50,353 nt of DNA from Dehalococcoidia bacterium (GTDB lineage Bacteria > Chloroflexota > Dehalococcoidia > DSTF01 > RBG-16-68-14): NCBI GenBank assembly GCA_040882355.1, contig JBBEBM010000082.1, positions 1 through 50,353 of the forward strand, given 5' to 3'. This document shows positions 4,374 through 41,977 of this stretch, piece after piece (within the stretch, counting starts at the first letter, position 1; every line of letters begins with the position of its first letter). A program made the position numbers and the translations under genes. The notes below the pieces were generated by a model. The model was not told the DNA's origin, did not search any database, and saw only the letters and a list, made by a program, of their open reading frames with translations.

Positions 4374-4964
4374 TCAGTCGGCGGTCGGTAGCACCGCTTT
4401 CGTCATGAAGACCGCGATGCCCAGGAAGTCCGGCTCGGTCTGCCGCTCGCGGTCGTCGTTGCGATAGAAGGCGTCGTGGAAGCCGGCGATACGGAAGCCG
4501 CGGGCGACCGCGAACTCGATCGCGTTGCGGTTGTCGGTCTGCGCCTCCCACTGCACGGCGCGCAGCCCGCGCTCGCGCGCGAACGCCTCCGCGTCTTCCA
4601 CAAACCACCGCCCGATGCCGCGCCCCCGGTATCGCGCCTCGACGACGATAGCGTCGATCTCCACCGTGCGGTTCCACTGCTCGCGCAGCGCCACGAAGCC
4701 CGCGACGCGCCCGTCGACCTCGGCGACGACGAACCGGTCGGCGCGCAGCGCCTCGTCGGCAGGCCAGGTCTCGTCTGTTCCGAAGCTACGCGTGCTGCCC
4801 TCGGGCTTCACCTTGCGCCAGCGCAGCTCGATCGTTTGCTCGATAGCGTCGCCGCCCCGTCCGACGACAAGCACCCACTCGTTGCCGAATGAGCTGTCGA
4901 GGGCCGCGAGCGCGGGCAGGTCGTCGGTCGTGCCGTCGCGCAGACGGAAGGCCTCGTTTGCCAT
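4374..4964 (-). CDS. GNAT N-acetyltransferase (streptothricin acetyltransferase-like)
   Basis: IVVEARYRGRGIG, EAQTDNRNAIEF..GF.IAGF; start MANEAF at 4964 inside the long ORF 4374..5921. Confidence 0.85.
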   Translation of the reverse strand: MANEAFRLRDGTTDDLPALAALDSSFGNEWVLVVGRGGDAIEQTIELRWRKVKPEGSTRSFGTDETWPADEALRADRFVVAEVDGRVAGFVALREQWNRTVEIDAIVVEARYRGRGIGRWFVEDAEAFARERGLRAVQWEAQTDNRNAIEFAVARGFRIAGFHDAFYRNDDRERQTEPDFLGIAVFMTKAVLPTAD

Positions 4965-4990
4965 GGGGGCCACTCTCGACTTGGGCGCCG

Positions 4991-5821
4991 TTAGCCCGCG
5001 TCGGCGGGCGCTTGCGAGCTGGGGAAGTCGATCTGATAGGTACGGTAGAGCCAGGGGATGCGCAGGATGCCGAGCAGGTTCAGCCCGAGCACGATCAGCA
5101 GCACCCCCGCGACCTTCTCGATCATCGGCAGGTGGTCGCGAACGACGTAGCCGACGGCGCCCACCGACGCGCCCAGCGCGACGAACACCGCCGAGAAGCC
5201 CAGCACGAAGGCGAGCGAGTGCCGGAACGTGACGCCGCGCTGCTCGTCCGCCGCCTCGACCGCCGAGACGCCGGCAAGGTGCGCCAGGTAAGCCGGCACC
5301 ATCGGCAGCGTGCAGGGCGAGAGGAAGGCGATGACGCCCGCGCCAAACGCGACGATGAAGCCGGCGGGGCTGGCGACGTCGATGCCAGTGAGGTTGTCCT
5401 CGGTGCCGGTGACTGTGTCTGCGCCGAGCGTGAAGTACTCGTTGAAGATCGTGAACCGGTCGAGAAAAATCAGCGCGCCGATGACGATCACCAGCACCCC
5501 GCCCACGATCTCCAGGGCCGGCATCAGGGGCCGGATCTTGCGCATGCCCGTCATCATCCGGCCCAGCATCAGCCCGGCGATGAGGAACGGGATGCCGAGC
5601 CCTAGCGACCACGCTGCGAGTAGGAACGTGCCCTGCAGCACCGTCGCGCTCGATGCGGCCAGCGTGAGGATCGCGCCCAGGATCGGCCCGATGCACGGCG
5701 TCCACCCCACCGCGAACGCCGACCCGATGCCGAACGACTTGCCGTAGCGCACGACGGCGGGCACGCGCTCGACCACGGCGGTCGGCGCTTCGGGCGTCGG
5801 TACGGTCGGTTTTACGGCCAT
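4991..5821 (-). CDS. ccdA: Cytochrome c biogenesis protein CcdA with its two halves in swapped order
   Basis: GWTPCIGPILG precedes AFLSPCTLP; hydrophobic multi-TM protein. Confidence 0.9.
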   Translation of the reverse strand: MAVKPTVPTPEAPTAVVERVPAVVRYGKSFGIGSAFAVGWTPCIGPILGAILTLAASSATVLQGTFLLAAWSLGLGIPFLIAGLMLGRMMTGMRKIRPLMPALEIVGGVLVIVIGALIFLDRFTIFNEYFTLGADTVTGTEDNLTGIDVASPAGFIVAFGAGVIAFLSPCTLPMVPAYLAHLAGVSAVEAADEQRGVTFRHSLAFVLGFSAVFVALGASVGAVGYVVRDHLPMIEKVAGVLLIVLGLNLLGILRIPWLYRTYQIDFPSSQAPADAG

Positions 5822-5823
5822 CG

Positions 5824-6060
5824 TTACGCGGTGCTCCCAAAGGGATCTTCGTCCTGCGGGCCGCCCAGGCCCAACAAGGCCAGCCGCGCCTCGTCGAAGC
5901 GCTCCTTGGCGCGCGCCTCACGATTGAGTAGCCCCTTCAACTGCGGCGGGTCCAGCGCCTCGCCCTCCAGGAAGACGCGATGGAGCGTCTGAAGCTGCTC
6001 CTGCCAGGCATCGTAGGCCTGGCGATACTCCTCCTGGTGCTGTGGTTCGACGCGGACCAT
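5824..6060 (-). CDS. Small helical hypothetical protein
   Basis: 78 aa, host-like codon usage, stop 2 nt before the ccdA start. Confidence 0.7.
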   Translation of the reverse strand: MVRVEPQHQEEYRQAYDAWQEQLQTLHRVFLEGEALDPPQLKGLLNREARAKERFDEARLALLGLGGPQDEDPFGSTA

Positions 6061-6085
6061 CGGCCTCAGATTCAGTATACGGCGG

Positions 6086-6826
6086 CTACGCGTCCGCGAG
6101 CCACGACACGAGCGTATCGGCCGTCTCCCGCAGGATCTCGAAGCGAGGCGGCTCCGGCCACGCGCTGTGCGGGAGGCCCTCGATCAGGCGGATACGATCG
6201 CCCGGCTTGCACTCGACCGCGACCGCACGCATCTCATCGACGGGGATCAGATGGTCGGCGGTGCCGAATACGATGTCCGCCGGCACCGACAGCCGGTGAT
6301 ACAGGTCCAGGAAGTCGATCTGCGCCGCCTCGCGCCAGAAGTCCCAGCGCACGCGCTGGCCGTCCTCCTCCATCCACTGCCCGGTCATCAACGAGAAGTC
6401 GACGTTGAGCATCGGCCCCGGGCTCCAGAGCGCCAGCCCGCGCAGAGTGTCGCCCAGCCGGACGGCCGCGGCCAGCGCCGCGCGACCGCCCATGCTCTGC
6501 CCCAGCAGCGCAACCGCTGCTCCAGCCTCGACATGCATTCGCACAGCGTGCTCGATCGTGTCGATCCACGTCGTGAATGAGGACTCTTCGAAGGCCCGCT
6601 CGGCGTCGCCGCTGCCCGGCTGGTCGAATCGGAAGGTCGAGACGCCGCGCTCGGCCAGCGCCCGCGCCAGGTCGACGAAGTAGCGCGACGGCCCGATCTT
6701 GCTCGACTTGAAGCCGTGCGCCATCACCACGACACGGCGACTCTCAGGCTCTGCGTGGTGGAAGACCGCCGCCGTGCGACAGCCCGCCAGCTCGACGAAA
6801 CGGAGCTCTTCGGTCGGGGCGCTCAT
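6086..6826 (-). CDS. Alpha/beta hydrolase
   Basis: HGF, RFDQPGSGD, GQSMG nucleophile elbow, GTAD, C-terminal His. Confidence 0.9.
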   Translation of the reverse strand: MSAPTEELRFVELAGCRTAAVFHHAEPESRRVVVMAHGFKSSKIGPSRYFVDLARALAERGVSTFRFDQPGSGDAERAFEESSFTTWIDTIEHAVRMHVEAGAAVALLGQSMGGRAALAAAVRLGDTLRGLALWSPGPMLNVDFSLMTGQWMEEDGQRVRWDFWREAAQIDFLDLYHRLSVPADIVFGTADHLIPVDEMRAVAVECKPGDRIRLIEGLPHSAWPEPPRFEILRETADTLVSWLADA

Positions 6827-6838
6827 GCTCTGCCGCGG

Positions 6839-8299
6839 TCAGCCTTCGCCGCGCTCGCTCCACCACTGACGCCAGCGCGCGAGGGCGGACGCCGCGCGCT
6901 CCGGTGTCGGGAAGACGGCGAGCTTCGCGTCGACGAGCTGCTGGCGGGCGCTTTCGACGGCGCGCCAGCGCTCTTCGTCCGGCGAGTCGGCCGGGCCGAG
7001 CACGAACGCGACGGGCTTGGGCGACGCGCGCCCGATCTCGACGAAGCGCTCGACGATGTGCCCGAGCCGCCGGTGGAAATCGGGCCGGCCCAGCACCCAG
7101 TCCTCGCCCACGTTGGCGACTAGCAAGTCGAAGTCCGGGCTCTTGGCCATCATGTCGAGGATCGCCGCGCCCGAGACGCCGGCGCCGGTGCCCGCCAGGA
7201 TCGACTGGTCGACGGGGTTGCCGATCCAGTCCCAGAGCGGCGAGCGCTCTTTGATCTGCTGGCGGATCGCGTCGGGCAGCGGCGGCACATCGAGCCCTTG
7301 CTCCACGCAGGCGTCTGCCGTCTGCACGCCTCGTCCGCCGCCCCCGCCCACGATGCCCGCTCGGCGACCAGGCGCGCCTTCGGGCCTCGGCAGCAGCGCG
7401 AACGCGACGAGCAGGTCGATCAGCTCGTCCTGCGAGTACACCTGGACCGCGCCCGCCTGGTGCAGCGCGGCGCTCCAGACCTCGCTCGCGCCGGCGAGCG
7501 CCGCTGTGTGCGAGACGGCGCTGCGCGCGCCCGCGCTCGTGCGGCCGCCCTTGAGGACGACGACTGGCTTCGCCTGCGCCGCGGTGCGCAAAGCGCCCAA
7601 GAACCGCCGCCCGTCGCGCGCGCCTTCGATGTACATGCCGATCGCCTTCGTCGCGCCGTCCTGCGCGAGGTGGCGGAGGAAGTCCGACTCGTCCAGGTCG
7701 AGCGCGTTGCCGTAGCTCAGCGCGGTGCTGAAGCCGATGCCGCGCACGTCGGCGTGCAGCAGCACCTCCGTCGTCGCGTTGCCGCTCTGCGAGAGAAATG
7801 CCGCCGCACCGACGCGTCGCGGCAGGTCCGGGCGGAACGAGATGCCCCAGCCCGGGTCGTGCACCCCCATGCAGTTCGGTCCGATCAGGCGGACGCCCGT
7901 CGCGCGCGCCCGTTCGAGCACGGCGCGTTCGAGGTCGGCGGCGTCGGCGCGGCCCGTTTCGCTGAAGCGGCCCGTGAAGAGCTGGACGGCGCGCACGCCC
8001 TTCTCCGCGCAGGCGTCGAGCAGGTCGAGCACCCCCTCCGACGGGATGCACGAGATCACGAAGTCGATCTCGTCCGGAATCGCGCGCACGTCAGCGTAAG
8101 TGGTCAGTCCCAGGATCTCAGTCTCGCGCGGGTGGACAGGGTAGACGGGCCCCGCGAACCCGAAATCGATCAGCGAGCGCAGGTAGTCGTGGCCCGGGCT
8201 GTCCGGGTTCGTGGACGCGCCCACGACCGCGATCGAGCGCGGGTGCAGGATCGCGCTCAGGTCGGCGCTCGCCGGCTCGGTCGATTTGGGTGCTGGCAT
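6839..8299 (-). CDS. CoA-binding acyl-CoA synthetase (NDP-forming) alpha-type subunit
   Basis: SIAVVGAS, LIGPNCMG, SQSG, SHTAALAG phospho-His, NPVD. Confidence 0.9.
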   Translation of the reverse strand: MPAPKSTEPASADLSAILHPRSIAVVGASTNPDSPGHDYLRSLIDFGFAGPVYPVHPRETEILGLTTYADVRAIPDEIDFVISCIPSEGVLDLLDACAEKGVRAVQLFTGRFSETGRADAADLERAVLERARATGVRLIGPNCMGVHDPGWGISFRPDLPRRVGAAAFLSQSGNATTEVLLHADVRGIGFSTALSYGNALDLDESDFLRHLAQDGATKAIGMYIEGARDGRRFLGALRTAAQAKPVVVLKGGRTSAGARSAVSHTAALAGASEVWSAALHQAGAVQVYSQDELIDLLVAFALLPRPEGAPGRRAGIVGGGGGRGVQTADACVEQGLDVPPLPDAIRQQIKERSPLWDWIGNPVDQSILAGTGAGVSGAAILDMMAKSPDFDLLVANVGEDWVLGRPDFHRRLGHIVERFVEIGRASPKPVAFVLGPADSPDEERWRAVESARQQLVDAKLAVFPTPERAASALARWRQWWSERGEG

Positions 8300-27753: not shown

Positions 27754-28125
27754 CTAGTGGCTGCAGGCGTGCGCCTGGGGCGCGCCCGCGCTATCCGCGG
27801 TGTCGAAGCTGGAGCCGCATGCGCAGCTCTTCACGGCGTTCGGGTTGAAGATCGTGAAGCCGCTCTTCATGATGTCGTCCACGTAGTCGATCTCGGCGCC
27901 CTGGAGGAGCGGGGCGCTCTCCGGGTCGACGAGCAGCCGGACGCCGCCGTGCTCGATCACCAGGTCGTCTTCTTCGGCCTCCTGGGCGAGCGACATGCCG
28001 TACTGGTAGCCGGAACAGCCGCCGCCGGCGACGAAGACGCGCAGTGCGCCGGTCTCGATGCCCTTCTCCTGCAGCAGGTTCCGCGCCTTCTCGACGGCCT
28101 TATCGGTGATGTTGACGACGGTCAT
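27754..28125 (-). CDS. erpA: Fe-S cluster A-type carrier (ErpA/IscA/HesB)
   Basis: GGGCSGYQY, NPNAVKSCACGSSF. Confidence 0.93.
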   Translation of the reverse strand: MTVVNITDKAVEKARNLLQEKGIETGALRVFVAGGGCSGYQYGMSLAQEAEEDDLVIEHGGVRLLVDPESAPLLQGAEIDYVDDIMKSGFTIFNPNAVKSCACGSSFDTADSAGAPQAHACSH

Positions 28126-28213: not shown

Positions 28214-28870
28214 TCATGTCGTTGCCGGGACGGGCGCTCGCTCACTGACCCGGTACGCGCAGGAGCCCTGGCAACCCGCCTCGCTCGGCTCTACATAATG
28301 AACATCGGCTCCCAGCAGGAGCGCCAGCAGGCGCTGGTCGTGGGCGCAGGCGTGGCCGTTCGCCTCGGCCACTCGCGGGCAGGGGCAGCCGTGGCCCACG
28401 AGCAGGTAGCCCTCGTCCGTGGTCTCGACGTCGAAGGCGATGCCCTCCTCCTCCAGAGCCGCCGTCGCCGAACGCAGGCGATCGACCAGCGTCGCTCCGC
28501 GCACGTGCGGCGCGATGCGGTGGCCCAGCCGCTGCGCCATCTTGTCGAAGACCAGCTCGGCAAGCTGGCCGCCGCCGCGCCCGGCTGTCTCCTCCGGCGT
28601 GAGGGCGACGATCTCCTCCAGCAGGCGGTTGGTGATGCGGACGTAGTGCTTCGGAAAGAGGTCCTCGCCCGCCTCGCTCATCGAGTAGAGGTAGTGGGGC
28701 CGTCCCGTCTTGCGCCGCACCTGCGCGACGTCCACATAGCCGTCGCGGATCAGGATGTCGAGGTGGCGACGTATCGTCGCGGGCGCGAGGCCCAACTCCT
28801 TCGTCAGGTCGTCGACGGTGGCCTGGCGGCGACGCAGGATGTTCAGGATGGTCTGACGGGTGCTCTCCAT
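28214..28870 (-). CDS. ArsR/SufR-like HTH regulator with C-terminal Cys residues
   Basis: TRQTILNIL..IRRHLDIL..GRPHYLY..FPKHY; CPC..C..C; upstream of erpA. Confidence 0.85.
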   Translation of the reverse strand: MESTRQTILNILRRRQATVDDLTKELGLAPATIRRHLDILIRDGYVDVAQVRRKTGRPHYLYSMSEAGEDLFPKHYVRITNRLLEEIVALTPEETAGRGGGQLAELVFDKMAQRLGHRIAPHVRGATLVDRLRSATAALEEEGIAFDVETTDEGYLLVGHGCPCPRVAEANGHACAHDQRLLALLLGADVHYVEPSEAGCQGSCAYRVSERAPVPATT

Positions 28871-28933: not shown

Positions 28934-29821
28934 TTACGCAGCGATGATGCGCTCTCGAATGCCCTCCAAGCCGGAGCTGACGAGGCTGTCGTTCTGAATG
29001 TGCAGGCCGTACAACACCTCGTGGAACGGCCCGATCTGCCGGTAGCGTTCCGCCCGCACGAGCAACGTGGCGTCCGGCGCGGCGGCGTAGCCCTGGACGG
29101 CAGCCTCCCTCAGGCCGCCAGTGAGCCCGGCGAAGTCGAGCGCCGGATCGCCCACGCGCGCGTCCGCGAAGTCGATCACGCCGGTCACGCTGGCGGTCGC
29201 CTCATCGACCAGGATGTGGTCCATGCCGAGGTCGGCGTGGATGAGGACGGGCCTGAAGGCGAACAACGCGTCGTCATTCAGGTAGCCGTCCCAGAAGCGC
29301 GCCACCGCCCCGGCCTCCGCGGCGGAGAGCAACGGCGAGACCTCGCGATCGCAGCCGGCGCGAAACTCGCGATAGCCCTCTCGCCACGACTCGGCCGTGA
29401 AGCATGGCACCTCCAGCTCGGCAGCGCGCTTGAGCGGGAAGGCGTGCAGCTCCGTCAGGAAGCGCCCGAGCTGTCGCGCGATCTCGCCAAGGGCCCGGTC
29501 GCCCAACGTGACGTCGCTCAACGGGACGCCGGGCAGCTTGCCGTAGCCGAAGAAGGGCAGCGGGAACTCGTCGACGCCTTCCGACACGAACTCCGGCAGC
29601 GGCACGGGCAGCGAGACGTGGCCGGCGAGCTCCCCCAGCAGCCGCGCCTCGGTGCGCAGCGGCCCGGCGCACTCCTCTCGCAAGGGGAAGCGGAAGAGCC
29701 ACCCGCCGTTCGCCTCCCAAACCTCGTAGTCCCAGCCCGCCGCGAAGTACGCCAGCGTTCGCACGGCCAGATCGGGGAACGCCTGAGCGATGATGCGCCG
29801 GCAGCGGTCGATGTCAAGCAT
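28934..29821 (-). CDS. Aminoglycoside phosphotransferase-family protein
   Basis: GWD, FRFP, LIHADL..DHIL, GVIDFADA..GDPALDF. Confidence 0.9.
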   Translation of the reverse strand: MLDIDRCRRIIAQAFPDLAVRTLAYFAAGWDYEVWEANGGWLFRFPLREECAGPLRTEARLLGELAGHVSLPVPLPEFVSEGVDEFPLPFFGYGKLPGVPLSDVTLGDRALGEIARQLGRFLTELHAFPLKRAAELEVPCFTAESWREGYREFRAGCDREVSPLLSAAEAGAVARFWDGYLNDDALFAFRPVLIHADLGMDHILVDEATASVTGVIDFADARVGDPALDFAGLTGGLREAAVQGYAAAPDATLLVRAERYRQIGPFHEVLYGLHIQNDSLVSSGLEGIRERIIAA

Positions 29822-29946
29822 GCCGCTCGGAGTATATCGCCCGGGAGCCGGGGCTCCTGCTGCGGAGGCCCTCGAATTGACACGAACGCCAAGCAACAGG
29901 CACTATCAAGTCTGTAGCTCAATCTGCGGGGGAGGTTTCGCGAGAC

Positions 29947-32900
29947 TTGATTTGTACAAGCTGCGGTCGTGAGAACCGCGCCGGCGCGCGCTTCTGCTCA
30001 GGATGCGGGGGCGAGCTGGCGCAGGCCTGCGCGGGCTGCGGTCAGCCATTGGCGCAGGGAGGCCAGTTCTGCGACTCATGCGGCCAGCCGGTAGGCCAGC
30101 CTGACGCCGCTCAGGCGGCGACCCCAACGCCGGCGCCGGCGCCCGCGCTGCCGGCGTCGTTCGCCTCCGGCCGCTACCAGGTGCAGCGCTTCCTTGGCGA
30201 GGGCGGCAAGAAGCGCGTCTACCTCGCGCACGACACGCGCCTCGATCGCGATGTGGCCGTCGCAGTGATCAAGACGGAGGGCCTGGACGAAGCCGGCGTG
30301 AAGCGCGTCCAGCGCGAGGCCCAGGCGATGGGCCGTCTCGGCGACCACACGAATATCGTCACCGTGCACGACATCGGCGACGATGGCGGCCAGCCTTACA
30401 TCGTGAGCCAGCACATGGGGGGCGGCGACCTGGAACGGCTACTTGCTAACGCAAAGGAGCATCGACTCTCGATCGCCAAAGCGATCGAGATCTCGGAGCA
30501 GGTGTGTGCTGCGCTCGAACACGCCCATAGCCACGCGGTCATCCATCGCGACCTGAAGCCGGGCAACATCTGGCTCGACGCCGATGGCTCGGCCAAGCTG
30601 GGCGACTTCGGACTGGCCGTCGCCATCGACCGCTCGCGCCTAACGCGCGAAGGCATGATGGTCGGGACGACATCATACATGCCGCCCGAGCAGGCGGTGG
30701 GTGGCGAGGTGACGCCCAGGTCGGACCTGTACTCACTGGGCTGCGCCCTCTACGAGATGGTCACCGGCCGGCCGCCGTTCCTGGGCGACGACTCCGTGGC
30801 GGTGATTTCACAGCACATCAATACAGCGCCGGTCGCGCCTTCCTGGCACAATCCTGAGGTACCGACGGCGCTAGACCTGCTCATCACACAGCTCCTTGCG
30901 AAAGTTCCGGCCGAGCGCCCACAGGATGCCAGGACCGTTGCGGATGAGCTGCGCCGGATCCGGGAGCGGAGCACGGTCGAGTCTGTCGTTGAAACACGGT
31001 CTCCGGCGGCAAACCTTCGTGGTCTCGCCTGGGGCCAGTTCGTCGGTCGGCGGCAGGAGATGGAGCAGCTCAAGTCCGCGCTGGAGAGCGCACTGTCGGG
31101 CCAAGGCACCTTGGCCATGCTCGCCGGTGAGCCCGGGATCGGCAAGACAAGGCTGGCTGAGGAGTTCGCCGTCTACGCCAGCCTGCGCGGCGCGCAGGTG
31201 CTGACGGGGAGGTGCTTCGAAGGCGAAGTCACGTTGCCCTACCGCCCGTTCATCGAGGCGTTTCGGCAGTACATCCGCTCGCGGCCGGACGCGGAGCTGC
31301 GCGGCGAGCTGGGCGACGGCGCGCCTGAGGTCGCGAAGCTCGTCTCCGAGGTGCACCAACGCTTCCCCGACATTCCTGAAGCACAGCCGCTTGAGGCTGA
31401 GGCGGAGCGCTTGCGCCTCTACGAAAGCGTGAGCACGTTCATTCGCAACGCGGCGACGGCGAACCCGATCGTCTTGTTTCTCGACGACATTCATTGGGCG
31501 GACAAGCCATCGCTGCTGCTCATGCGCTATCTCGCGCGCGCAATCGCCGGCCAGCGCGTGCTGATCCTCGGCGCCTACCGCGACGTCGAGCTGGACCGCA
31601 CGCACCCGCTGTCGGAAGTGATGGCGACGCTGCGACGCGAGACGCCGTACCAGCGCGTGCTTCTGCGCGGGCTGGCCGAAGAAGATGTCCTCGGGCTGCT
31701 AGAAACCCAGGAATCGTCCGAGGAGACGGCCGCCGGACGCCGGGCGCTATCGGCGGCGCTCTACAAGGAGACCGAAGGCAACCCGTTCTTCATCCGCGAG
31801 GTGCTCAGCCTTCTGGTTGAGGAAGGGAAGCTGGTGCACGAGAACGGCCACTGGGTGGCGCGCGTCTCGTCCGTCTCAGAGATGGGGATCCCTGAAGGCG
31901 TTCGGGAAGTCGTCGGGAAGCGTCTGTCTCGCGTGAGCGAAAGCTGCAACCGCATGCTCACGATGGCTTCGACGATGACCGGCGGCTTTACGTGGGAGGA
32001 GTTGAAGGCGATCGCGGATGTCGGCGAGGCGGAGCTGGTTGAGCTGCTGGAGGAGGCTCTCGCTACGCAGTTGATCCTGGAGCGCAAGGGCGACCAGGTC
32101 GGCACGTACGACTTCACCCACGCGCTGATCCGTCAGACGCTCTACGGCGAGCTGAGCACGCCGCGACGCGTGATCTTGCACCGCCAGATCGGTAATGCGT
32201 TGGAGGCGTTCTACGGATCGAACGTCGATGCGCACCTGTCCGAGCTGGCCCACCACTTCTACCAGGCAGCGCCAGGCGGCGACGTCGACAAAGCGATCGA
32301 CTACGCTACACGCGCGGGCGATCGCGCGGTTGAACAGCTCGCCTACGAGGAGGCTTCGGCGCACTATGAGCTCGCGCTCCAGGCGCTCGACCTCACTGAC
32401 ACCGCCGGCGAACGCCAGCGCTACGAGCTGCTCATGCCGCTCGGGGGAGCCTATTACCGCTCCGATCTCCCGGAGAAGGCGGTACCGACGCTGGAGCAGG
32501 CCGTGCAGTTGGCGATACGCCTGGGCGACGCGCATCTGCAGGGTACGGCAGCCCTGGCATACCACCTTGCCGTGCAGCGCGGCCCGCTGGCGTTCACGGC
32601 GGTCGCGGTGCCCGTTCTTGAGCTAACACTGGAAGCGTGCGGCAGCGAGCCGACCGGACTCCGGGCGAGGCTGCTCGCCGCTCTGTCTGAGGCCCTCGAG
32701 ACGCCGGGTCACATCGAAGCGCAGCGTGAGCGGCGCCTCGCTATCGCGCACGAAGCCAAGGACGTTGCGGAGCTTGCGGGTGACGGCAACGCAATGGTGA
32801 GCGCCCTCCGTGCCCTCCATGGGGCGATGGAAGGACCGGAAAACACAGAGGAGCGCCTCGCTGTCTCCAGGGAGCTGATCGCTGTTGCAGAAGGTTTCGG

Positions 32901-34416
32901 CAGTCGCGTCGACGCCGTCTGGTCTCGCCTCTTTCTCATTGGTGATCTGGCCCAGCTTGGTGAGATGGACGCGGTGAAACGAGAAATCGCAACCACGTGC
33001 GATCTCGCCGACCAGTTGAGAGAACCAGCATTCAGCGGCTGGCGCCCCCTATGGGACGCGATGCTGTTGATGCGAGAGGGCCGCTACGAGGAGGCCGAGC
33101 GACGGGTCCTGGAGGTCGGTCCGATTGCGCAGCGCACACAACATCCAGGCTGGATCGGCACGTTCTCGGCGCAGTTCTTCGCGATCCGCTGGGCGCAGGG
33201 CCGGATTGGCGAGATCGAGCAGGTCGTCCTTCAGCGCCTGGAGGAGATGCCCGACCTGCGCGCGTGGCAGGCGGCGCTGGTAATGGTCTATCTAGACGCG
33301 GATCGGCCTGACCGCGCGCGCGAGTGGTTCGATCGCCTCGCCGCTGCTGACTTCGCCGACATCCCGAAGGACCCGCAGTGGATCGTCACTCTCATGCTCG
33401 CAGCTTACGCCGCGAGGCGGCTCGGCGATGCCCCCCGCGCAGCGAAGATCTACGAGATCCTCCAGCCGTACGCTCAACGTCAGGTCACGGTCGGCTTCGC
33501 CTTCCTCTGCCAGGGCTCTGTCTCGCTCAGCCTGGGTCAGCTGGCCGCGACTATGGGCCGCTGGGAAGACGCGGAACGCCACTTCGAGGAAGCGCTTTCG
33601 TTCAACGAGCGCACCGGCACCCCTCCGTGGCTAGCCGAAGCCCGCTTCTACTATGCCGGAATGCTGCACGAGCGTGCCGGGCCCGGCGATGACGAGAAGG
33701 CCGTCGCGCTGGTGAACCAGGCGCTCGCCGCCTTCGAGGACATGGGCATGGCGAAATATGTCGAGCGGGCGCTCGCCCTGAAGCTGGACCTCCAGGGCAT
33801 CGCGGGATACGACGTCAACACCTCGATCGACACGGTCGCCGTCGTGATCAATGCGGAGCGTCCCGACCTCCGCTCCCATGCCGCGCCGGACGGCACCGTG
33901 ACCCTGCTCTTCACCGATATCGAAGGCTCCACGTCGCTCAACGAACGCCTCGGCGACCAGCGCTGGATGGACATCCTGCGCGTCCACCACGCGATCGTGC
34001 GCGACCAGATCGCCGCCCACGGCGGCTTCGAGGTGAAGAGCCAGGGCGACGGCTTCATGGTCGCGTTCGGGAGCGCGCGCCGCGCGCTCGAGTGCGCGAT
34101 TGCTGTTCAGCGGGCGGTCTCGTCACTGGGCGAGAAGGCGGAAGAGCCGTACCGCCTGCGCGTGGGCCTCCACACGGGAGAAGCGATCCGGGAGGCCGAC
34201 GACTTCTACGGCCGGCACGTGAACCTCGCGGCACGAATTGCGGGCCAGGCGCGCGGAGACGAGATCCTCGTCTCATCGCTGCTGAAGGAGCTGACAGACA
34301 GCGCCGGCGAGTTCGAGTTTGACGAGGGGCGGGAGGTGACGCTCAAGGGCATCTCCGGTACGCAGCGTGTATATGGAGTGCGCTGGGGGAACGAGGCGGC
34401 AGGCTCACGGTCCTGA
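29947..34416 (+). CDS. Double Zn-ribbon + Ser/Thr kinase + STAND (AAA_16) ATPase + TPR-like region + class III nucleotide cyclase
   Basis: 4x CxxC; HRDLKPGN, DFG; FVGR, GEPGIGKT, LDDIHWAD, GNPFF; FTDIEGST, KSQGDG, VNLAARI. Confidence 0.92.
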   Translation: MICTSCGRENRAGARFCSGCGGELAQACAGCGQPLAQGGQFCDSCGQPVGQPDAAQAATPTPAPAPALPASFASGRYQVQRFLGEGGKKRVYLAHDTRLDRDVAVAVIKTEGLDEAGVKRVQREAQAMGRLGDHTNIVTVHDIGDDGGQPYIVSQHMGGGDLERLLANAKEHRLSIAKAIEISEQVCAALEHAHSHAVIHRDLKPGNIWLDADGSAKLGDFGLAVAIDRSRLTREGMMVGTTSYMPPEQAVGGEVTPRSDLYSLGCALYEMVTGRPPFLGDDSVAVISQHINTAPVAPSWHNPEVPTALDLLITQLLAKVPAERPQDARTVADELRRIRERSTVESVVETRSPAANLRGLAWGQFVGRRQEMEQLKSALESALSGQGTLAMLAGEPGIGKTRLAEEFAVYASLRGAQVLTGRCFEGEVTLPYRPFIEAFRQYIRSRPDAELRGELGDGAPEVAKLVSEVHQRFPDIPEAQPLEAEAERLRLYESVSTFIRNAATANPIVLFLDDIHWADKPSLLLMRYLARAIAGQRVLILGAYRDVELDRTHPLSEVMATLRRETPYQRVLLRGLAEEDVLGLLETQESSEETAAGRRALSAALYKETEGNPFFIREVLSLLVEEGKLVHENGHWVARVSSVSEMGIPEGVREVVGKRLSRVSESCNRMLTMASTMTGGFTWEELKAIADVGEAELVELLEEALATQLILERKGDQVGTYDFTHALIRQTLYGELSTPRRVILHRQIGNALEAFYGSNVDAHLSELAHHFYQAAPGGDVDKAIDYATRAGDRAVEQLAYEEASAHYELALQALDLTDTAGERQRYELLMPLGGAYYRSDLPEKAVPTLEQAVQLAIRLGDAHLQGTAALAYHLAVQRGPLAFTAVAVPVLELTLEACGSEPTGLRARLLAALSEALETPGHIEAQRERRLAIAHEAKDVAELAGDGNAMVSALRALHGAMEGPENTEERLAVSRELIAVAEGFGSRVDAVWSRLFLIGDLAQLGEMDAVKREIATTCDLADQLREPAFSGWRPLWDAMLLMREGRYEEAERRVLEVGPIAQRTQHPGWIGTFSAQFFAIRWAQGRIGEIEQVVLQRLEEMPDLRAWQAALVMVYLDADRPDRAREWFDRLAAADFADIPKDPQWIVTLMLAAYAARRLGDAPRAAKIYEILQPYAQRQVTVGFAFLCQGSVSLSLGQLAATMGRWEDAERHFEEALSFNERTGTPPWLAEARFYYAGMLHERAGPGDDEKAVALVNQALAAFEDMGMAKYVERALALKLDLQGIAGYDVNTSIDTVAVVINAERPDLRSHAAPDGTVTLLFTDIEGSTSLNERLGDQRWMDILRVHHAIVRDQIAAHGGFEVKSQGDGFMVAFGSARRALECAIAVQRAVSSLGEKAEEPYRLRVGLHTGEAIREADDFYGRHVNLAARIAGQARGDEILVSSLLKELTDSAGEFEFDEGREVTLKGISGTQRVYGVRWGNEAAGSRS

Positions 34417-34507
34417 AGAGCCAGCGGAGCCAGCATACATCCCCGCCCCAACAAGCTTCGTTGACAGCGTTTTGAGGCCGGTGCTACGGTGCAAGCGAGA
34501 GCCAGTC

Positions 34508-35704
34508 ATGCCCGACCGACGCGTCTACCTCGATCACGCCGCCACGACGCCCACCGACCCGCGGGTCGTGGAGGCGATGCTGCCCTACCTGACGGATGTC
34601 TGGGGCAACCCATCGAGCATCTATTACGAGGCACGCGAGGCGCGCAAGGGCCTCGACACGGCCCGGCGCAGCGTCGCTGAGGTGCTCGGCGCGCGTCCGA
34701 CGGAGATCGTCTTCACCAGCGGCGGCACAGAGAGCGATAACCTGGCGCTGCGCGGCGTCGCGTACGGCGCCCGGCGGCGTGGCAACCACATCATCACTAC
34801 CGCCATCGAGCATCACGCCGTCCTCCACACGGCCGAGCGGCTCGAGCAGGAGGGCTTTCGCGTCACCTACCTCCCCGTCGACCGCGAGGGCTTCGTCGAT
34901 CTCGAAGCGCTCGAGCGCGCGCTCGACGACGAGACGGTGCTCGTCTCGGTCATGTACGCCAACAACGAGGTCGGGACGGCCGAGCCCATCACCGAGGTGG
35001 TGCGCATCGTCAAGGCGCGCGACCCGCACATCACCGTCCACACCGACGCCGTCCAGGCCGCGGGCTCGCTCGACCTGAACGTCGACCGGCTCGGCGTCGA
35101 TCTGCTCTCGCTCGCCGGTCACAAGATCTACGGCCCGAAGGGCGTCGGGGCGCTCTACGTGCGCACGCGCACGCCGTTCCTGCCGCAGCAGTTGGGCGGT
35201 TCCCAGGAGAAGAACCGGCGCGCGGGCACGGAGAGCGTCGCGAACGCGGCCGGCATGGCGGCTGCGCTCCGCCTCGCCGAAGAGGCGCGCCCTGAGCGCT
35301 CCGCGCACTCCCGCGCCCTGCGCGACCGCCTGCTCGACGAGCTGCCGCGCCGCGTGCCCGGAGCGCGCGTCACCGGGCCGACCGACCCCGAACGCCGCCT
35401 GCCGAACAACGCCTCGTTCTGCTTCGAGCGAGTCGAAGGGGAGGCGGTGCTGCTCCAGCTCGACCTGAACGGCGTCAGCGCCAGCAGCGGCTCGGCCTGT
35501 ACGACCGCTTCGCTCGAACCGTCCCACGTCTTGCTGGCGATGGGCATCTCGCACGAGCTCGCGCGCGGCAGCCTGCGCCTCACCCTGGGCAAGGGCAACA
35601 CGGCGGACGAGGTCGAGTTCGCCCTCGGGGCGATCGCCACCGCCGTCGAGAAGCTGCGCGCGCTCGCGCCGCGACCCGGCCGCGCGCCGACGCCGGCCCG
35701 CTAG
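34508..35704 (+). CDS. iscS: Cysteine desulfurase (IscS/NifS group I)
   Basis: YLDHAATT, FTSGGTESDN, HTDAVQ, GHKIYGPKG, SSGSACT. Confidence 0.95.
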   Translation: MPDRRVYLDHAATTPTDPRVVEAMLPYLTDVWGNPSSIYYEAREARKGLDTARRSVAEVLGARPTEIVFTSGGTESDNLALRGVAYGARRRGNHIITTAIEHHAVLHTAERLEQEGFRVTYLPVDREGFVDLEALERALDDETVLVSVMYANNEVGTAEPITEVVRIVKARDPHITVHTDAVQAAGSLDLNVDRLGVDLLSLAGHKIYGPKGVGALYVRTRTPFLPQQLGGSQEKNRRAGTESVANAAGMAAALRLAEEARPERSAHSRALRDRLLDELPRRVPGARVTGPTDPERRLPNNASFCFERVEGEAVLLQLDLNGVSASSGSACTTASLEPSHVLLAMGISHELARGSLRLTLGKGNTADEVEFALGAIATAVEKLRALAPRPGRAPTPAR

Positions 35705-36606: not shown

Positions 36607-39420
36607 CTAGGGCGGCGAGCCCCGCAAGCAGTAAAGGTTCTCGATCCCCGCGAAGTGCTCCGGTACCGGCACCGGGCACTGTGTCGCGTCGGACTCGCCT
36701 TCCAGCGCGGCGTAGACGATAAACGTCTGTCCGTCCGACTGGTACCAGTACGTGCCATCGTTCAGCGGGTCCTTTGGGATCGGCGTGAGCATCTCCTGCA
36801 CGTCGCAGGCCGCGTCGAAGGGGTAGACGCAGAAGCTCTGCACGCCGTCCGTGCTCGGGTACTCGTCGTGCTCTTCGTAGTACTCCTGCAGCGCGCCGGC
36901 CATCGTGAACAGGTCGCGGCGCCGCTGCTCGTCGCGCTCAGCGCCCGCCTCCGCGTCGCTCGTCGGCGACGGCGCCGGCGTCGGCTCTTCGCCGTCGACA
37001 TCGTCATCGGGCGGCGGTTCGTCGTCGCCAGGCGTCCGTTCGTATCTCGTCAGTCCGGGCGACGTGTAGGTCGCCCGGTAGACCTCCCGGCCGGGGTACA
37101 GCGCCAGCACGTCCGCGAGTCGCTCCGGTATGTCGCGCGCGTAGACGATGTTGCCGTCCAGGTCCGGCGAGTTCTTCCAGAAGACCGTGCCGTAGCACTG
37201 CCAGTGCGGGCATGCCTCGACAAGGACCAGCGCGTTCTTCAGATCGGCATCGTCGACGAGCTTGAGCAGCCGGTCGTCCGCATCGTTGAACCCCTTGAGG
37301 GCGATGGCGCGGTCCGGCACGAAGTCCGCCACCCAGCCGTCCTGCTTGCCGAAGAGCCACCCGGCGAGTGCCGCGCCCACGAACACCAGCACGATGCTGT
37401 AGACGACCCCCGTTCCCACCCAGCGCGCCACGACGTCCGCCGGGCGACGCCCGAGCACCGCCCGCTGAACGAACGCCGCGCTCGCGCCCAGCACCTCGGC
37501 CGCGCGGTCGGCGCCGCGCGCCGTCAGCAGCATCAGGAAGGGCACCGCCTCGTACCAGTAGCGCGGGCCGTGCATGACGCCGTTGCCCTCGAACAGCGAG
37601 TACGCGCCTAAGACGAAGACCGCGCAGACCAGGAAGAACCAGTCCCAGAGCTTGCGCGTCCCCAGCATGAACGGCAGCAGCACGAACATCATCCCGATGT
37701 ATAGGGGCCACCCGTTGAAGACGAGCAGCAGGAAGGTGAGCTGCGTCTGCTCGTTCTGGATTCCGGCGTTTACGGTGTGCCTCCCGCCGAAGCCCACCGC
37801 CTGATCGAGGTCGCCGCCGACCTGGTAACCGCTGCTGAACGCGTCGCCCGTCGAACCGTCGTTGTAGATCCAGTACGCGACCAGCATCAGCAGCCCGCCG
37901 GCGATGAACCCCGCAAGCATTCGAACTTGCGCCAGGCGGTCCTCCTCCGGCAGCAGCCGGCTGAGCAAGAAGGCGCCGAACGGCAGCACCAGCGCCATCG
38001 CCGTCAGCGGGCGCGTGTTGAACAGCAGGCCGAAGAAGAGCCCGGCGGCGATCGCATAGGGGAGCCTCTTCTTGTCCATCAGCGATACGAAGAACAGCGA
38101 GAGCAAGACGTAGAATGCGCCCGTGTTGTGCGACATGAAGTTGCTCGCCGTCATGAGGAAGAACGGCGATGCGGCCAGCAGCAGCGCCGCCAGCAGGGCG
38201 GTGCGCGTGTTGTAGATGCGCCGCCCCAGCGCGAAGATCAGCAGCACGCAGCCGCCGCCGACCAGCGGCGGGATTAGCCAGATCGCTCCCAGGCGCACCC
38301 CGACCGCCAGCAACAGCGAATGGCCGAAGGGGTAGACGCTCGCCCAGTGGTCGCCGGACGTGATGATCAGCGGCGGGTAGAAGAACTCGAAGGCGTCCTG
38401 GACGGGGGCAGGGTCGGCGGAGAACCGCCCCGCCGCGATCAGCTTCGCCTGGAAGATGTACGAGACCTCGTCCGGCACGTGCGGCATGTGCGAACCGTAC
38501 GAGTAGTTCAAGTAGAGGGTGATCACGAACGCGCAGATGGCGATCGCTCCCGCGACGAACCACGCCATCTGCCTCGGGAACCACTCGTCGACCGGCAGCG
38601 AGCGCGGCCAGGGCACGAGGAGCAGACCGAGCACCACGAGGAAGCCCGCCGCCAGCATCAGCAGCGCCAGCGGGTAGACGCGCAGCACCATCTCCACCAT
38701 CGACCTGACAGTCTCCGTCTTGCTCGCCAGGAAGACGTCGCCCGGCACGCTGGCCGTCGCCTGTCCGTCTGCGATCAGCGCGATCAGGTTGTCGTAGTGA
38801 CGGAACGGGCGGAAGGTGTAGACGACGCCCTCGTTCGCGTCCTCCGCGCGCACCATGATCGCGCCGCCGTTGATGTTCTTGAAGCGCACGTCGACGGCGT
38901 AGTTCGTCCAGTCCTCGACCACCTGCAGCGTGCCCGAGCCCGTCACGCCGAGCACGCCGCCGTCGCTCTCGAACGCGCCCGCGACGTTCGTCCACTCCTC
39001 GGACGGGCCGTGCGAGAAGTCGTCCTCGAACAGCACCTCGTCGGTGTCGAGATCGGTGATGCGCACCGAGTCGATGCCGCGGGGCTTGGGCAGGCTCGGC
39101 GGCTGTGACGTGTCCAGCAGGCTGACGATCACGCCGCCCTCGGCAGGCGCTTCGTAGTTCGCGGAGGCCCGCAGTTGGCCGTCGCCGTACGCGACGAACG
39201 AGGCGCCACGCGCCTCCAGTCGGATGTGCGTCGTCTGGCCGCCCCGGCTCCAGAACCACCCTGCCAGCAGCACCAGGTTCACGATGACGAAGACGCTGCC
39301 GGCGAGCGCGATGCGGCCGCGGTTCGCCCGGGCCCGCGATGCCAGCCAGCGCAGCCGGCGGCTCGTCTTCACGGGCAGCCCGATGCGACGGTCCCTGGCA
39401 ACCATTCCTCGATCACTCAT
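36607..39420 (-). CDS. GT-C membrane glycosyltransferase with N-terminal beta-sandwich-like domain and C-terminal pilin/GspG-like domain
   Basis: PHVPDEVSYIFQAK, multi-TM, GPRYWYE; tail RDEQRRRDL..ALQEYY...YP...IPKDP..YWY.SDG..F..YAALE. Confidence 0.85.
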   Translation of the reverse strand: MSDRGMVARDRRIGLPVKTSRRLRWLASRARANRGRIALAGSVFVIVNLVLLAGWFWSRGGQTTHIRLEARGASFVAYGDGQLRASANYEAPAEGGVIVSLLDTSQPPSLPKPRGIDSVRITDLDTDEVLFEDDFSHGPSEEWTNVAGAFESDGGVLGVTGSGTLQVVEDWTNYAVDVRFKNINGGAIMVRAEDANEGVVYTFRPFRHYDNLIALIADGQATASVPGDVFLASKTETVRSMVEMVLRVYPLALLMLAAGFLVVLGLLLVPWPRSLPVDEWFPRQMAWFVAGAIAICAFVITLYLNYSYGSHMPHVPDEVSYIFQAKLIAAGRFSADPAPVQDAFEFFYPPLIITSGDHWASVYPFGHSLLLAVGVRLGAIWLIPPLVGGGCVLLIFALGRRIYNTRTALLAALLLAASPFFLMTASNFMSHNTGAFYVLLSLFFVSLMDKKRLPYAIAAGLFFGLLFNTRPLTAMALVLPFGAFLLSRLLPEEDRLAQVRMLAGFIAGGLLMLVAYWIYNDGSTGDAFSSGYQVGGDLDQAVGFGGRHTVNAGIQNEQTQLTFLLLVFNGWPLYIGMMFVLLPFMLGTRKLWDWFFLVCAVFVLGAYSLFEGNGVMHGPRYWYEAVPFLMLLTARGADRAAEVLGASAAFVQRAVLGRRPADVVARWVGTGVVYSIVLVFVGAALAGWLFGKQDGWVADFVPDRAIALKGFNDADDRLLKLVDDADLKNALVLVEACPHWQCYGTVFWKNSPDLDGNIVYARDIPERLADVLALYPGREVYRATYTSPGLTRYERTPGDDEPPPDDDVDGEEPTPAPSPTSDAEAGAERDEQRRRDLFTMAGALQEYYEEHDEYPSTDGVQSFCVYPFDAACDVQEMLTPIPKDPLNDGTYWYQSDGQTFIVYAALEGESDATQCPVPVPEHFAGIENLYCLRGSPP

Positions 39421-41044
39421 GCGATTGTGCCTGCGAGGATTGTAGCTCGCCGGATGGTGGGTCGGACGCGAGGCCCGTGATCTCGACCAGGTAGAAGGCA
39501 GGCTCGCCGCTCGGATAGTCGATCACGTCCAACGTCTGGTAGGTGAAGGTGTCGGGCATGTCCTCCGGACGCAGCGCGAAGAGCTGACGGCGCGTCGGGT
39601 CGTAGTCGTCCGTGTTGCCGACTTCGCACTTCGCGCAGTCGTCCGGCGCGTAGAACCCGAAGAACATCCGCGGCGCGTTGAACCTCCTGTCCATGATCAG
39701 GTCGTCGTACTGGCCCTCCACCCCGAGGAAGCGCGCCACGACCTGCTTCGGGCCGTACTGCCAGCCCCAGTAGTCGGCGGCCAGCTTCGGGTACTCGCCG
39801 TGGTAGCGGTCGAGGTACGACGCGAAGCCGTTCAGCGAGAAGCCGAGCGCGACCGCAACGAGGGCGCCCGCCGCGATCGCTGGAGCCGGTCGCGGCGCCC
39901 AGCGCAGGCCGGCGCGCGCGAGATCGGCGGCGACGATCAGCCCATAGCCGGAGAGCAGCGCGAACACGACAGAGCCGATGATCGTCCGGCTGCTGAACGG
40001 GCTCTCGCGAGTGATAGCGCCGCCCAGCGGGTAGAGGACGAGCAGCGCCAGTACGATGAGCTTCTCCCTGTCCGGACGCCACAGCAGGCCGAGCAGCCCC
40101 GCGAAGGCCAGCGGGAGTTGGGCGTAGTACAGCTCCCCGAAGCCCGGCAGGTAGTGGCGGGTCACGCGGTAGTGATCGCCATCCTGGAAGAGGAACGACA
40201 TCGTGAAGTACGAGCGATAGTTGGTTGCCAGCCGCTCGAGCGTCCCCCAGAAGCCCAGCCCGGCGTTGAACAGGCTGACGTCCTGCGCGCGGTCGTCCTC
40301 CAGGAGCACGTGGAAGACAATCGGCAGCGCCATCAGCGCGACGATCGCCAGGCCAATCAGCGCGTACCTCCGTCCGGCCAGCAGTTCGCGCCGGTAGAGC
40401 ACGGCGAGGAGGACCAGAAGCGGCGGCAGCGTCACCCAGGCCGCCCGGTACGTGTAGAGCGTGAGGCCCAGCACGACGCCGGCCGCGATCCAGAGCGCGT
40501 TGCGCCGTCTGCCCTCCAGGAAGAGGTAGAGGCCAAGCGTGAGGAAGAAGGGGAACGTCACCAGCTCGCCGAAGCCCGTGCGGCTGTAGTGGATGTGCCA
40601 GGGCATGATCGCCAGGAAGAACGCCGCGGCGACCGCAACCTCGCGGCGCTTGAACAGCGCGGACGCTAGCAGGTACGTCGTCACGATCGTCGCCGCCCCG
40701 TAAAGCGCCGAGGTGAGGCGCACGGCGAGCTCGGAGAGGCCCAGGATCGCGATCACCGGCACCTGCGAGTAGATGAAGACCGGCAGCTTGTACTCGCCGA
40801 ACGCGCGAAAGAGCAGCGGCAGCGTCTTCCCGTGCTCGTCCTGACCGGTGTGGAGGATCTTGTAGGCGTTGTAGCCCGCCGACGCCTCGTCCGTGAAGAA
40901 TCCGGGTGGGTTACCGACGATGTCGTAGAGCCGGACGGCCGCGCCCAGCGCGACGATGCCGATCAATGCGACGAGCGCCCAGTACCTGCCGAACAGCGCG
41001 CGGGCTCCCGCGTCGAGGGGCGGATCGGCGAGGAGGACGGTCAT
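39413..41044 (-). CDS. GT-C (PMT/ArnT-like) glycosyltransferase, paralog of 22918..25527 without TPRs
   Basis: NPPGFFTDEASAGYNAY, AFGEYKLPV, PWHIHYSRTG, GWQYGP, YAPDDCAKC. Confidence 0.88.
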   Translation of the reverse strand: MTVLLADPPLDAGARALFGRYWALVALIGIVALGAAVRLYDIVGNPPGFFTDEASAGYNAYKILHTGQDEHGKTLPLLFRAFGEYKLPVFIYSQVPVIAILGLSELAVRLTSALYGAATIVTTYLLASALFKRREVAVAAAFFLAIMPWHIHYSRTGFGELVTFPFFLTLGLYLFLEGRRRNALWIAAGVVLGLTLYTYRAAWVTLPPLLVLLAVLYRRELLAGRRYALIGLAIVALMALPIVFHVLLEDDRAQDVSLFNAGLGFWGTLERLATNYRSYFTMSFLFQDGDHYRVTRHYLPGFGELYYAQLPLAFAGLLGLLWRPDREKLIVLALLVLYPLGGAITRESPFSSRTIIGSVVFALLSGYGLIVAADLARAGLRWAPRPAPAIAAGALVAVALGFSLNGFASYLDRYHGEYPKLAADYWGWQYGPKQVVARFLGVEGQYDDLIMDRRFNAPRMFFGFYAPDDCAKCEVGNTDDYDPTRRQLFALRPEDMPDTFTYQTLDVIDYPSGEPAFYLVEITGLASDPPSGELQSSQAQSHE

Positions 41045-41781: not shown

Positions 41782-41870
41782 GCCGAAGTGGTGGAACTGG
41801 TAGACACGACGGTCTCAAAAACCGTTGCCCCGCGAGGGGCGTGCCGGTTCGAGCCCGGCCTTCGGCACCA
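41782..41870 (+). tRNA. tRNA-Leu(CAA)
   Basis: Acceptor stem GCCGAAG/CTTCGGC, anticodon arm acggt-ctCAAaa-accgt, long variable arm, GGTTCGAG, encoded CCA. Confidence 0.95.
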
Positions 41871-41903
41871 ACCTCGACGTTCTCGGGCGCCCGTCCCGCT
41901 CAG

Positions 41904-41977
41904 TGCCGAGTGGTGTAACGGTAGCACAGGGGTCTTTGGAGCCTCTAGTCTAGGTTCGAATCCTAGCTCGGCAACCA
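41904..41977 (+). tRNA. tRNA-Gln(TTG)
   Basis: Acceptor stem TGCCGAG/CTCGGCA, loop ctTTGga, GGTTCGAATCC, encoded CCA. Confidence 0.95.

Follow-up and report, generated by a model that had tools for sequence, protein, structure and literature searches.

In the eukaryotic WNK kinases, the charge of K72 is moved to PKA position 55, the third position of the Gly-loop, and WNK is described as the only functional eukaryotic protein kinase (ePK) family that lacks K72 (PMC1821047); a Cys occupies the β3 site and the lysine has migrated to strand β2 (PMC12599244). A 2026 review, whose available text leaves bacteria and prokaryotes unmentioned, calls this lysine placement “unique” and links it to the chloride control of WNK (PMC13686953). 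Here we describe a bacterial Ser/Thr protein kinase domain with the same placement, encoded at 29947..34416 (+) of a 50,353-nucleotide stretch of DNA from a Dehalococcoidia bacterium (assembly GCA_040882355.1, contig JBBEBM010000082.1); the whole stretch was analysed and is referred to as the window. The gene comes from an uncultured soil-type bacterium and specifies a large signalling protein of 1489 amino acids (aa) from its TTG start as listed, within an open frame of 1511 aa. In the kinase domain, Ala106 stands in the canonical β3 (VAIK) lysine column, and a lysine, Lys89, is found at the third Gly-loop position. The domain derives from canonical PknK-like kinase-STAND proteins and belongs to a single bacterial clade. 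Judging from the comparisons set out below, it is likely that the lysine anchoring ATP has shifted in this clade to the Gly-loop, as Lys89, and that the kinases are active by standard Hanks chemistry under the control of a STAND-type module; the kinase domain is probably a working enzyme rather than a dead one.

The likeness to WNK1, as the latter is described, consists of a small residue at the β3 site (Cys in WNK1; Ala/Ser here), a third-position Gly-loop lysine on β2 in both, and the retention in both of the αC Glu, the HRD motif and the rest of the catalytic set. An earlier note, made from the sequence alone, had pointed to this WNK-like placement, and the positions indeed match the statements in PMC1821047 and PMC12599244 (a lysine at PKA position 55 on β2; a Cys at β3). 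No family-level homology, however, connects the two: the nearest sequences and folds here are those of PknB, PknA and Stk1, the motif reads G-D-F-G, and the domain context is a zinc ribbon, a STAND ATPase and a cyclase. WNK kinases, for comparison, have a DLG motif with a chloride site. In POMK (SGK196), the lysine has likewise migrated from VAIK to β2, where it is needed for POMK activity (PMC10211241); POMK, however, is without canonical HRD and DFG motifs and phosphorylates a sugar, whereas HRD and DFG are canonical here. A microbial kinase-fold family, CAK-chloro, shows a charge moved from position 72 to position 55 (Met72, Arg55; PMC1821047), but it is choline/aminoglycoside-kinase-like, acts on small molecules and is not of the Hanks type, employs Arg rather than Lys, and has Phe in place of the αC Glu that is invariant here. 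The β2-for-β3 lysine replacements known from these sources are those of WNK and POMK, both eukaryotic, next to the Arg55/Met72 shift in CAK-chloro.

Among bacterial proteins, the domain order is closest to that of the PknK type of Mycobacterium tuberculosis, in which an N-terminal Ser/Thr kinase is followed by an AAA_16 (MalT-like) ATPase and TPR repeats; a multi-domain PknK family is named in the bacterial kinase atlas preprint (bioRxiv 10.1101/2025.01.12.632604). PknK-type proteins, as exemplified by the relative L057, keep the β3 Lys and a Gly/Met loop, whereas the protein described here has a zinc ribbon and a C-terminal cyclase added. The atlas preprint and a 2025 review describe seven bacterial pseudokinase families (ActPs1-3, GLW, CP1, DYD and DLHK); their available text describes a Gly-loop lysine for none of the seven and cites WNK only as a eukaryotic analogy. 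The open-access literature searched yielded no report of a Hanks-type bacterial kinase whose lysine sits in the Gly-loop. The clade would represent an independent natural replicate of the WNK placement that is large, monophyletic, strongly conserved and set inside the PknB-like kinases, and the occurrence of the same relocation there suggests that the β2-lysine active site is a recurrent evolutionary solution. The clade proteins are soluble and stem from environmental, non-pathogenic bacteria, and a canonical sister group is at hand for comparison.

Register of the Gly-loop and strand β3

The window bases, read in the frame of 29947..34416 (+), give the Gly-loop as G84-E-G-G-K-K89-R-V91 (30196..30219, +; codons GGC GAG GGC GGC AAG AAG CGC GTC) and the strand β3 stretch as D102-V-A-V-A106-V-I-K109 (30250..30273, +), the same letters that the earlier note had read as GEGGKKRV and DVAVAVIK. 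The register from the Gly-loop to αC was determined with phmmer against all PDB chains. The alignment with PknB contains no gap before the αC loop, setting lgeggkkrvyla over lgfggmsevhla and, at β3, rldrdvavavikte over rlhrdvavkvlrad, again ungapped. Ala106 (GCA; 30262..30264, +) consequently falls in the β3 Lys column and Lys89 (AAG; 30211..30213, +), the proposed ATP-anchoring lysine, in the third Gly-loop column, while Lys109 (30271..30273, +) lies over a PknB Arg, three residues past the PknB Lys. The closest canonical relative found in the phylum, L041 (50% identity; GRGGLGVV ... DVAVKVLS), aligns with the query ungapped as well, GRGGLGVV ... HDTLLDRDVAVKVLS of L041 and GEGGKKRV ... HDTRLDRDVAVAVIK of the window protein sharing one register. 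Both alignments agree with the earlier claim that the VAIK Lys is replaced by Ala and that a Lys occupies the third Gly position.

An AlphaFold2 model of the kinase domain, built on 41 genome-derived domains, has a mean predicted local distance difference test (pLDDT) score of 87.6 and places, in domain numbering, β2 at 23-30, β3 at 35-42 and αC at 49-63. In this model Lys89 (domain residue 23) opens β2, Ala106 (40) lies within β3, and Lys109 (43) is just beyond β3. A complex prediction with two kinase-domain copies, ATP and Mg scored 0.06 and 0.01 (mark 0.42) and returned no contacts. The remaining catalytic elements, which had been reported as intact from the first inspection of the sequence, are all present: αC Glu124 of the REAQ motif (30316..30318, +), the catalytic loop H200-R-D202-L-K204-P-G-N207 (30544..30567, +), followed by I208-W209 with the Trp209 codon at 30571-30573 (+), and G219-D220-F-G222 (30601..30612, +), in which a Gly (Gly219, codon 30601-30603) stands ahead of the DFG motif.

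The kinase domain spans residues 77-326 (30175..30924, +) and matches Pfam Pkinase (PF00069) at 165.2 bits against a cut-off of 31.7. Foldseek gives template modelling (TM) scores of 0.85-0.91 to PknB/PknA. In VIA-align comparisons, Stk1 (Z 34.7, root mean square deviation (rmsd) 1.8, 263 residues aligned), PknB (Z 34.3, rmsd 1.8, 256 aligned) and PknA (Z 34.2, rmsd 2.1, 268 aligned) are found, and eukaryotic kinases reach Z of about 29-31; no WNK entry appears among the top 50 matches listed by Foldseek and VIA-align. By sequence, StkP, PknB, PknA and PknE lead the 60 best matches in the PDB, and no WNK is listed among these. The bacterial best folds, together with a canonical bacterial sister group (below), indicate, as the earlier note had supposed, that the WNK likeness is convergence and not family membership. 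A eukaryotic origin of the kinase domain was considered and rejected, as it is contradicted by the same two lines of evidence. By its Pkinase profile, its bilobal fold nearest to solved bacterial Ser/Thr kinases, and its HRD Asp, Asn, DFG Asp and αC Glu, the domain is of the Hanks type; the β3 VAIK Lys is missing, with Ala106 in its place, making it a member by homology, yet an atypical one like WNK.

A single clade carries the Gly-loop lysine

Domains for alignment were pooled from 120 proteins of a 90%-identity collection, 150 representatives of a 50%-identity library and 40 domains cut from the genomes of relatives. Left out were rows with fewer than 220 of the 279 aligned columns, exact duplicates, and the protein P0002, whose sequence equals that of the query; this reduced 419 rows to 387, and a second run added 15 further loci (401 rows). 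Among the 387 domains, 243 carry the loop Lys without the β3 Lys and 124 the β3 Lys without the loop Lys; both lysines are absent from 20, and no domain combines the two. In the FastTree phylogeny of the 387 domains, one branch (support 1.0, length 0.37) sets all 243 loop-Lys domains apart, and the clade so defined comprises 246 members, that is, the 243 plus three N-truncated or gapped rows whose loop cannot be read properly. It extends down to 45% identity to the query. The split is recovered in the 401-row tree (support 0.998), where the midpoint-rooted sister is made up of the canonical L041 and two domains of P0177. An IQ-TREE analysis without the two trait columns, on 41 versus 40 rows picked by identity spread, also gives one state change, with an SH-like approximate likelihood ratio test (SH-aLRT) value of 94. 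The covariation of the two positions proposed for checking in the earlier note was thus followed across the 387 domains and proved to be one evolutionary event that marks a single clade. Among the canonical relatives found, the nearest is L057, a kinase-AAA_16-TPR protein of 1191 aa that keeps the β3 Lys and a Gly/Met Gly-loop, which indicates that the swap arose within PknK-like, STAND-linked kinases.

Retention of the swapped state is strict. At the loop position (K89), 243 of 244 clade members and 41/41 genome-derived domains have Lys, so that the poor conservation which would have spoken against the earlier note did not appear. At the β3 site (A106), the 246 members have A in 219, S in 23, G in 2, C in 1 and V in 1, compared with K in 124/124 canonical relatives. 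The αC Glu (E124) is present in 246/246; H, R and D of the HRD motif are each at 100%, the catalytic-loop Lys at 99%, and Pro and Asn at 100%; the DFG residues stand at 100% (D), 98% (F) and 99% (G), and the APE Glu at 100%. In the activation loop, the conserved Thr stand at 96% and 100%. This conservation of catalytic residues equals or exceeds that of the 124 canonical domains in the same alignment. The clade admits only small residues at the β3 site, which fits a side chain having to pass there; in 16 domains without either lysine, E, T, R, Q, I and M are among the residues found there. Lys88, next to Lys89, was also tried as the key residue and rejected, its column being variable in the clade (R 50%, K 33%, Q 9%, S 3%).

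Outside the clade, the combination of a loop Lys with no β3 Lys was found in 0/124 canonical domains of the same alignment and, among the matches listed from 79 loci of many phyla, in 0/78 full-length domains, this latter sample consisting mostly of distant canonical kinases at 36-49% identity. In a planctomycete genome with 88 kinase-domain matches, 0/48 domains read have the loop Lys, and all of them keep the β3 Lys. A loop Lys in 243/244 clade members against none in the canonical and background domains is not a matter of chance. One protein of a Planctomycetaceae metagenome-assembled genome (L089) combines a GRGGMGVV Gly-loop with Ala at the β3 Lys column (AVALAMLP) and intact HRD and DFG motifs; by its sequence this is a different kind of β3-Lys loss, with both lysines missing.

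The clade also differs from its canonical relatives around the nucleotide pocket, which Trp209 and Gly219 both line. The Met of the G-loop is replaced by R/K, the Phe of the αC “RF” by V/I, and Met128, Trp209 and Gly219 are clade-specific. Trp209, two positions after the catalytic Asn, is found in 94% of the clade versus L/M/I in canonical relatives, and Gly219 before DFG in 99% versus T/L/A/S. The G-loop Met and the αC Phe form a bacterial-specific packing pair according to the bacterial kinase atlas preprint (bioRxiv 10.1101/2025.01.12.632604), and the clade-specific changes, which include this pair, argue that the whole Gly-loop/β3/αC corner has been rebuilt.

Kinase paralogs and linkage to FHA-ABC transporters

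The genome from which the window comes (G000; 3.33 Mb in 82 contigs, 93.9% complete) has only four Pkinase matches, all of which belong to the clade and lie in proteins of about 1470-1510 aa. Their Gly-loops read GEGGKKRV, GEGGKKRV, GEGAKKRV and GEGGQKTV, with A, A, S and G at the β3 site and K, K, R and K at the +3 position, in the same order. No canonical Hanks kinase was found in this 93.9%-complete genome. Two FHA (phosphothreonine-binding) domains are nevertheless encoded in this genome; a single protein carries them both, followed by an ABC ATPase and an ABC-2 membrane domain. This FHA-FHA-ABC transporter, 797 aa long and built like Rv1747, is encoded on contig C38 (locus L053) at 4893-7286 (-), and its gene is the convergent neighbour of the kinase paralog on that contig, 46 nt apart.

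The linkage recurs among relatives. A search with the FHA region in 41 related genomes returned 19 matches in 11 genomes, and 8 of the 19 share a contig with a family-level kinase-domain match that is no more than 5.1 kb away. Divergent pairs, 283-1290 nt apart, account for four of the eight. The loop Lys (GxGxQKxV), with A/S/G at the β3 site, is present in each of the seven linked kinases that were read; the eighth (G005), at the end of a contig, is a fragment of 57 residues. In two FHA-linked kinases (L055 and L056) the +3 position is N or T, leaving the loop Lys as the only candidate. Judged by the size of the genome, the adjacency of kinase and FHA genes appears to go beyond chance.

A comparable pair is known from M. 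tuberculosis, where PknF is reported to phosphorylate and positively regulate Rv1747 (PMC3138270, PMC3908365, PMC8339232). The C38 paralog and its relatives resemble PknF in adjoining a gene for two FHA domains, an ABC ATPase and an ABC-2 domain. PknF, however, is canonical and membrane-anchored, whereas the kinases here are Lys-relocated STAND-cyclase fusions, and the window copy is not the linked one. The linkage suggests the FHA-ABC transporter as a candidate physiological substrate.

Probable activity of the kinase domain and alternative explanations

That the kinase is probably working follows from the swap being shared by hundreds of relatives; the 99-100% conservation of the other catalytic residues and the repeated adjacency to FHA transporters argue for activity too. 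Several points weigh against this conclusion. Since the swap is one event, the covariation of the two positions offers no independent statistical support, and the weight rests on the strictness of retention since then. Trp209 stands in a column that, in the structure of PKA, lines the bottom of the adenine pocket, and a Trp at this place could change the nucleotide pocket or block it; a PP2C-type phosphatase (PF13672, PF00481) was not found in the 93.9%-complete genome; and the kinase gene of the window itself has no FHA gene beside it. Moreover, the atlas preprint defines a pseudokinase by sequence as missing the VAIK Lys, the HRD Asp or the DFG Asp (bioRxiv 10.1101/2025.01.12.632604), and the domain, with its VAIK Lys missing, comes under that definition. 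The absent β3 Lys, the remodelled pocket (W209, G219, M128) and the lack of a PP2C match would all suit a true pseudokinase that has kept the fold, may still bind nucleotide, and acts as a scaffold or regulatory module for the STAND ATPase and the cyclase, with the loop Lys serving binding or structure; in the same direction points CP1, an ATPase-linked bacterial family of which about 40% are pseudokinases (PMC12599244). Yet in the bacterial pseudokinase families, as described, the HRD Asp, the DFG Asp or both are lost as well, whereas the HRD Asp, Asn, DFG Asp, αC Glu, activation-loop Thr and APE Glu are conserved here at 96-100% over 246 members, down to 45% identity. In addition, no Hanks kinases other than those of the clade were found in the genome, although FHA domains are encoded there, and the linkage of clade kinases to FHA-transporter genes recurs. 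We therefore hold a pseudokinase to be unlikely, though it is an alternative to be taken seriously. The same genome has one strong match to the SpoIIE family, on contig C4 at 57056-57622.

An active kinase could also be imagined without any role for Lys89, if Lys109 of the VIK triplet acted as the functional equivalent of the β3 lysine through a bulge or register shift and the loop Lys were incidental. Lys109 is indeed frequent in the clade (91%), in a column that is variable in canonical relatives (R 17%, S 17%, P 16%, L 12%). Against this, the 246 members have K in 225, R in 14, N in 4, P in 2 and D in 1 at this +3 position, the Lys thus being replaced in 21/246 and by N or T in FHA-linked members, whereas the loop Lys is held in 243/244. 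The alignments with PknB and L041 are ungapped, the Ala of “VAIK” (A104) is retained in the canonical register in 244/246, and the AlphaFold2 model places Lys109 past strand β3; from strand geometry, an odd shift would put the side chain on the other face of the sheet. The alignment of the VIK lysine with the β3 site, which the earlier note had named as a way for its proposal to fail, is accordingly not what is seen, and we consider this alternative highly improbable. An assembly or annotation artefact, or a gene decaying in this genome alone, can practically be dismissed: the frame is open over 1489 codons with five domains above their Pfam cut-offs, and the pattern is repeated in four paralogs and in hundreds of proteins from independent assemblies. 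If the kinases of the clade are active with a relocated lysine, as we favour, annotation rules that equate a missing VAIK lysine with a pseudokinase would put hundreds of bacterial enzymes, probably active ones, in the wrong class.

Domain architecture and proposed mechanism

Besides the kinase domain, the protein contains four modules. A double zinc ribbon forms the N-terminus (residues 3-46; 29953..30084, +; Pfam DZR 35.7 bits, cut-off 27.3). The kinase is followed by an AAA_16 (STAND-type) ATPase (residues 364-540; 31036..31566, +; 107.9 bits, cut-off 32.6), inside which a Walker A-like stretch, GEPGIGKT, can be read, and by a long helical region with a TPR_12 repeat block (residues 1195-1264; 33529..33738, +; 49.8 bits, cut-off 30.1). 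An AAA_16 module with a Walker A P-loop, succeeded by TPR/helical repeats, is the arrangement of the STAND/AAA_16-TPR proteins. The C-terminus is a class III nucleotidyl cyclase (residues 1314-1476; 33886..34374, +; Pfam Guanylate_cyc, PF00211, 75.5 bits, cut-off 21.9). In a phmmer comparison the cyclase domain matches Ma1120 (PDB 4wp3) with an E-value of 4.5e-50 over residues 2-177 of the 188 queried, and the metal-binding Asp blocks and the Asn/Arg block are kept in identical or near-identical form (ftdie.st, vksqgdgfmvaf, gr.v..aar). Profile match and conserved Asp and Asn/Arg blocks together identify it as a class III cyclase. Ma1120 of Mycobacterium avium is a model adenylyl cyclase (PMC4215837); it is a short stand-alone cyclase, whereas the domain here is the output domain of a 1489-aa fusion. 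A protein of 1489 aa identical to the gene product is present in the protein collection (P0002).

We picture the product as a cytoplasmic STAND-type protein in which the AAA_16 and TPR regions would serve as sensor and switch, fused to an N-terminal kinase and a C-terminal class III adenylyl cyclase. In the kinase, the side chain of Lys89 would pass over the small residue at the β3 site, contact the α- and β-phosphates of ATP and pair with αC Glu124, and phosphotransfer would follow the usual Hanks chemistry through Asp202, Asn207 and Asp220. Two conserved threonines of the activation loop, Thr233 and Thr241, and the HRD Arg suggest that the kinase may be activated by autophosphorylation. Oligomerisation of the STAND module in response to a signal could bring kinase domains together for trans-phosphorylation, and the same oligomerisation could pair the cyclase domains into the dimer that class III cyclases need.

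A bolder proposal, to which we give only a slim chance, is that the relocated lysine is more than a neutral rewiring and underlies a regulatory mode found only in these STAND-coupled kinases, so that the entire Ser/Thr phosphorylation of this lineage would run through ligand-gated, independently invented WNK-type kinases. The STAND/TPR switch could then bring the ATP anchor, sitting on a mobile Gly-loop, into place or pull it back; a metabolite or small anion in the vacated β3 site might do so instead, in the way that chloride controls WNK. Trp209 and Gly219 would reshape the pocket as well, and the kinases of this Chloroflexota lineage would control an FHA-gated ABC transporter and cyclic AMP (cAMP) synthesis.

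Distribution and architecture of relatives

The closest homologs are labelled as coming from Chloroflexota or Dehalococcoidia bacteria, with one from Binatia. A match at E <= 1e-20 is present in 24 of 41 genomes of the same family and order, and in these 41 genomes a gap in identity separates family-level matches (48-100%) from ordinary kinases (37% or less). When 401 genomes were sampled evenly across the phylum, family-level matches (at least 59% identity) were found in five (G000, G180, G135, G426 and G207), and all four matches fetched from the latter four genomes show the swap. Matches at 41-50% identity are numerous in this sample, and the eight that were fetched are canonical (8/8).

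When 41 of the 86 clade representatives were scanned, AAA_16 was found in 35 and a cyclase at E <= 1e-10 in 16. The six representatives without AAA_16 comprise five short proteins (396-546 aa, probably cut) and P0181, a protein of 1094 aa in which the cyclase stands ahead of the kinase. Another clade member, P0125 (3024 aa), contains two kinase domains and two AAA_16 modules; either its kinase-STAND unit has been duplicated in tandem or gene calling has fused separate genes.

Neighbouring genes

The genes that flank the kinase-cyclase gene do not suggest an operon partner. Directly upstream, on the opposite strand, lies the gene for an APH-family phosphotransferase of 320 aa, a kinase-fold enzyme (28934-29896, -), and beyond it, likewise on the opposite strand, those for an ArsR-type regulator (28214-28870) and an IscA-like Fe-S assembly protein (27754-28125). 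Downstream, an open reading frame for a class V aminotransferase resembling cysteine desulfurases (34367-35704, +) overlaps the final 50 bases of the kinase-cyclase gene as listed; its real start is probably further downstream. Farther along the window, two big PMT_2-type glycosyltransferase genes stand in tandem at 36607-41044 (-), and tRNA-Leu(CAA) and tRNA-Gln(TTG) adjoin each other at 41782-41977 (+).

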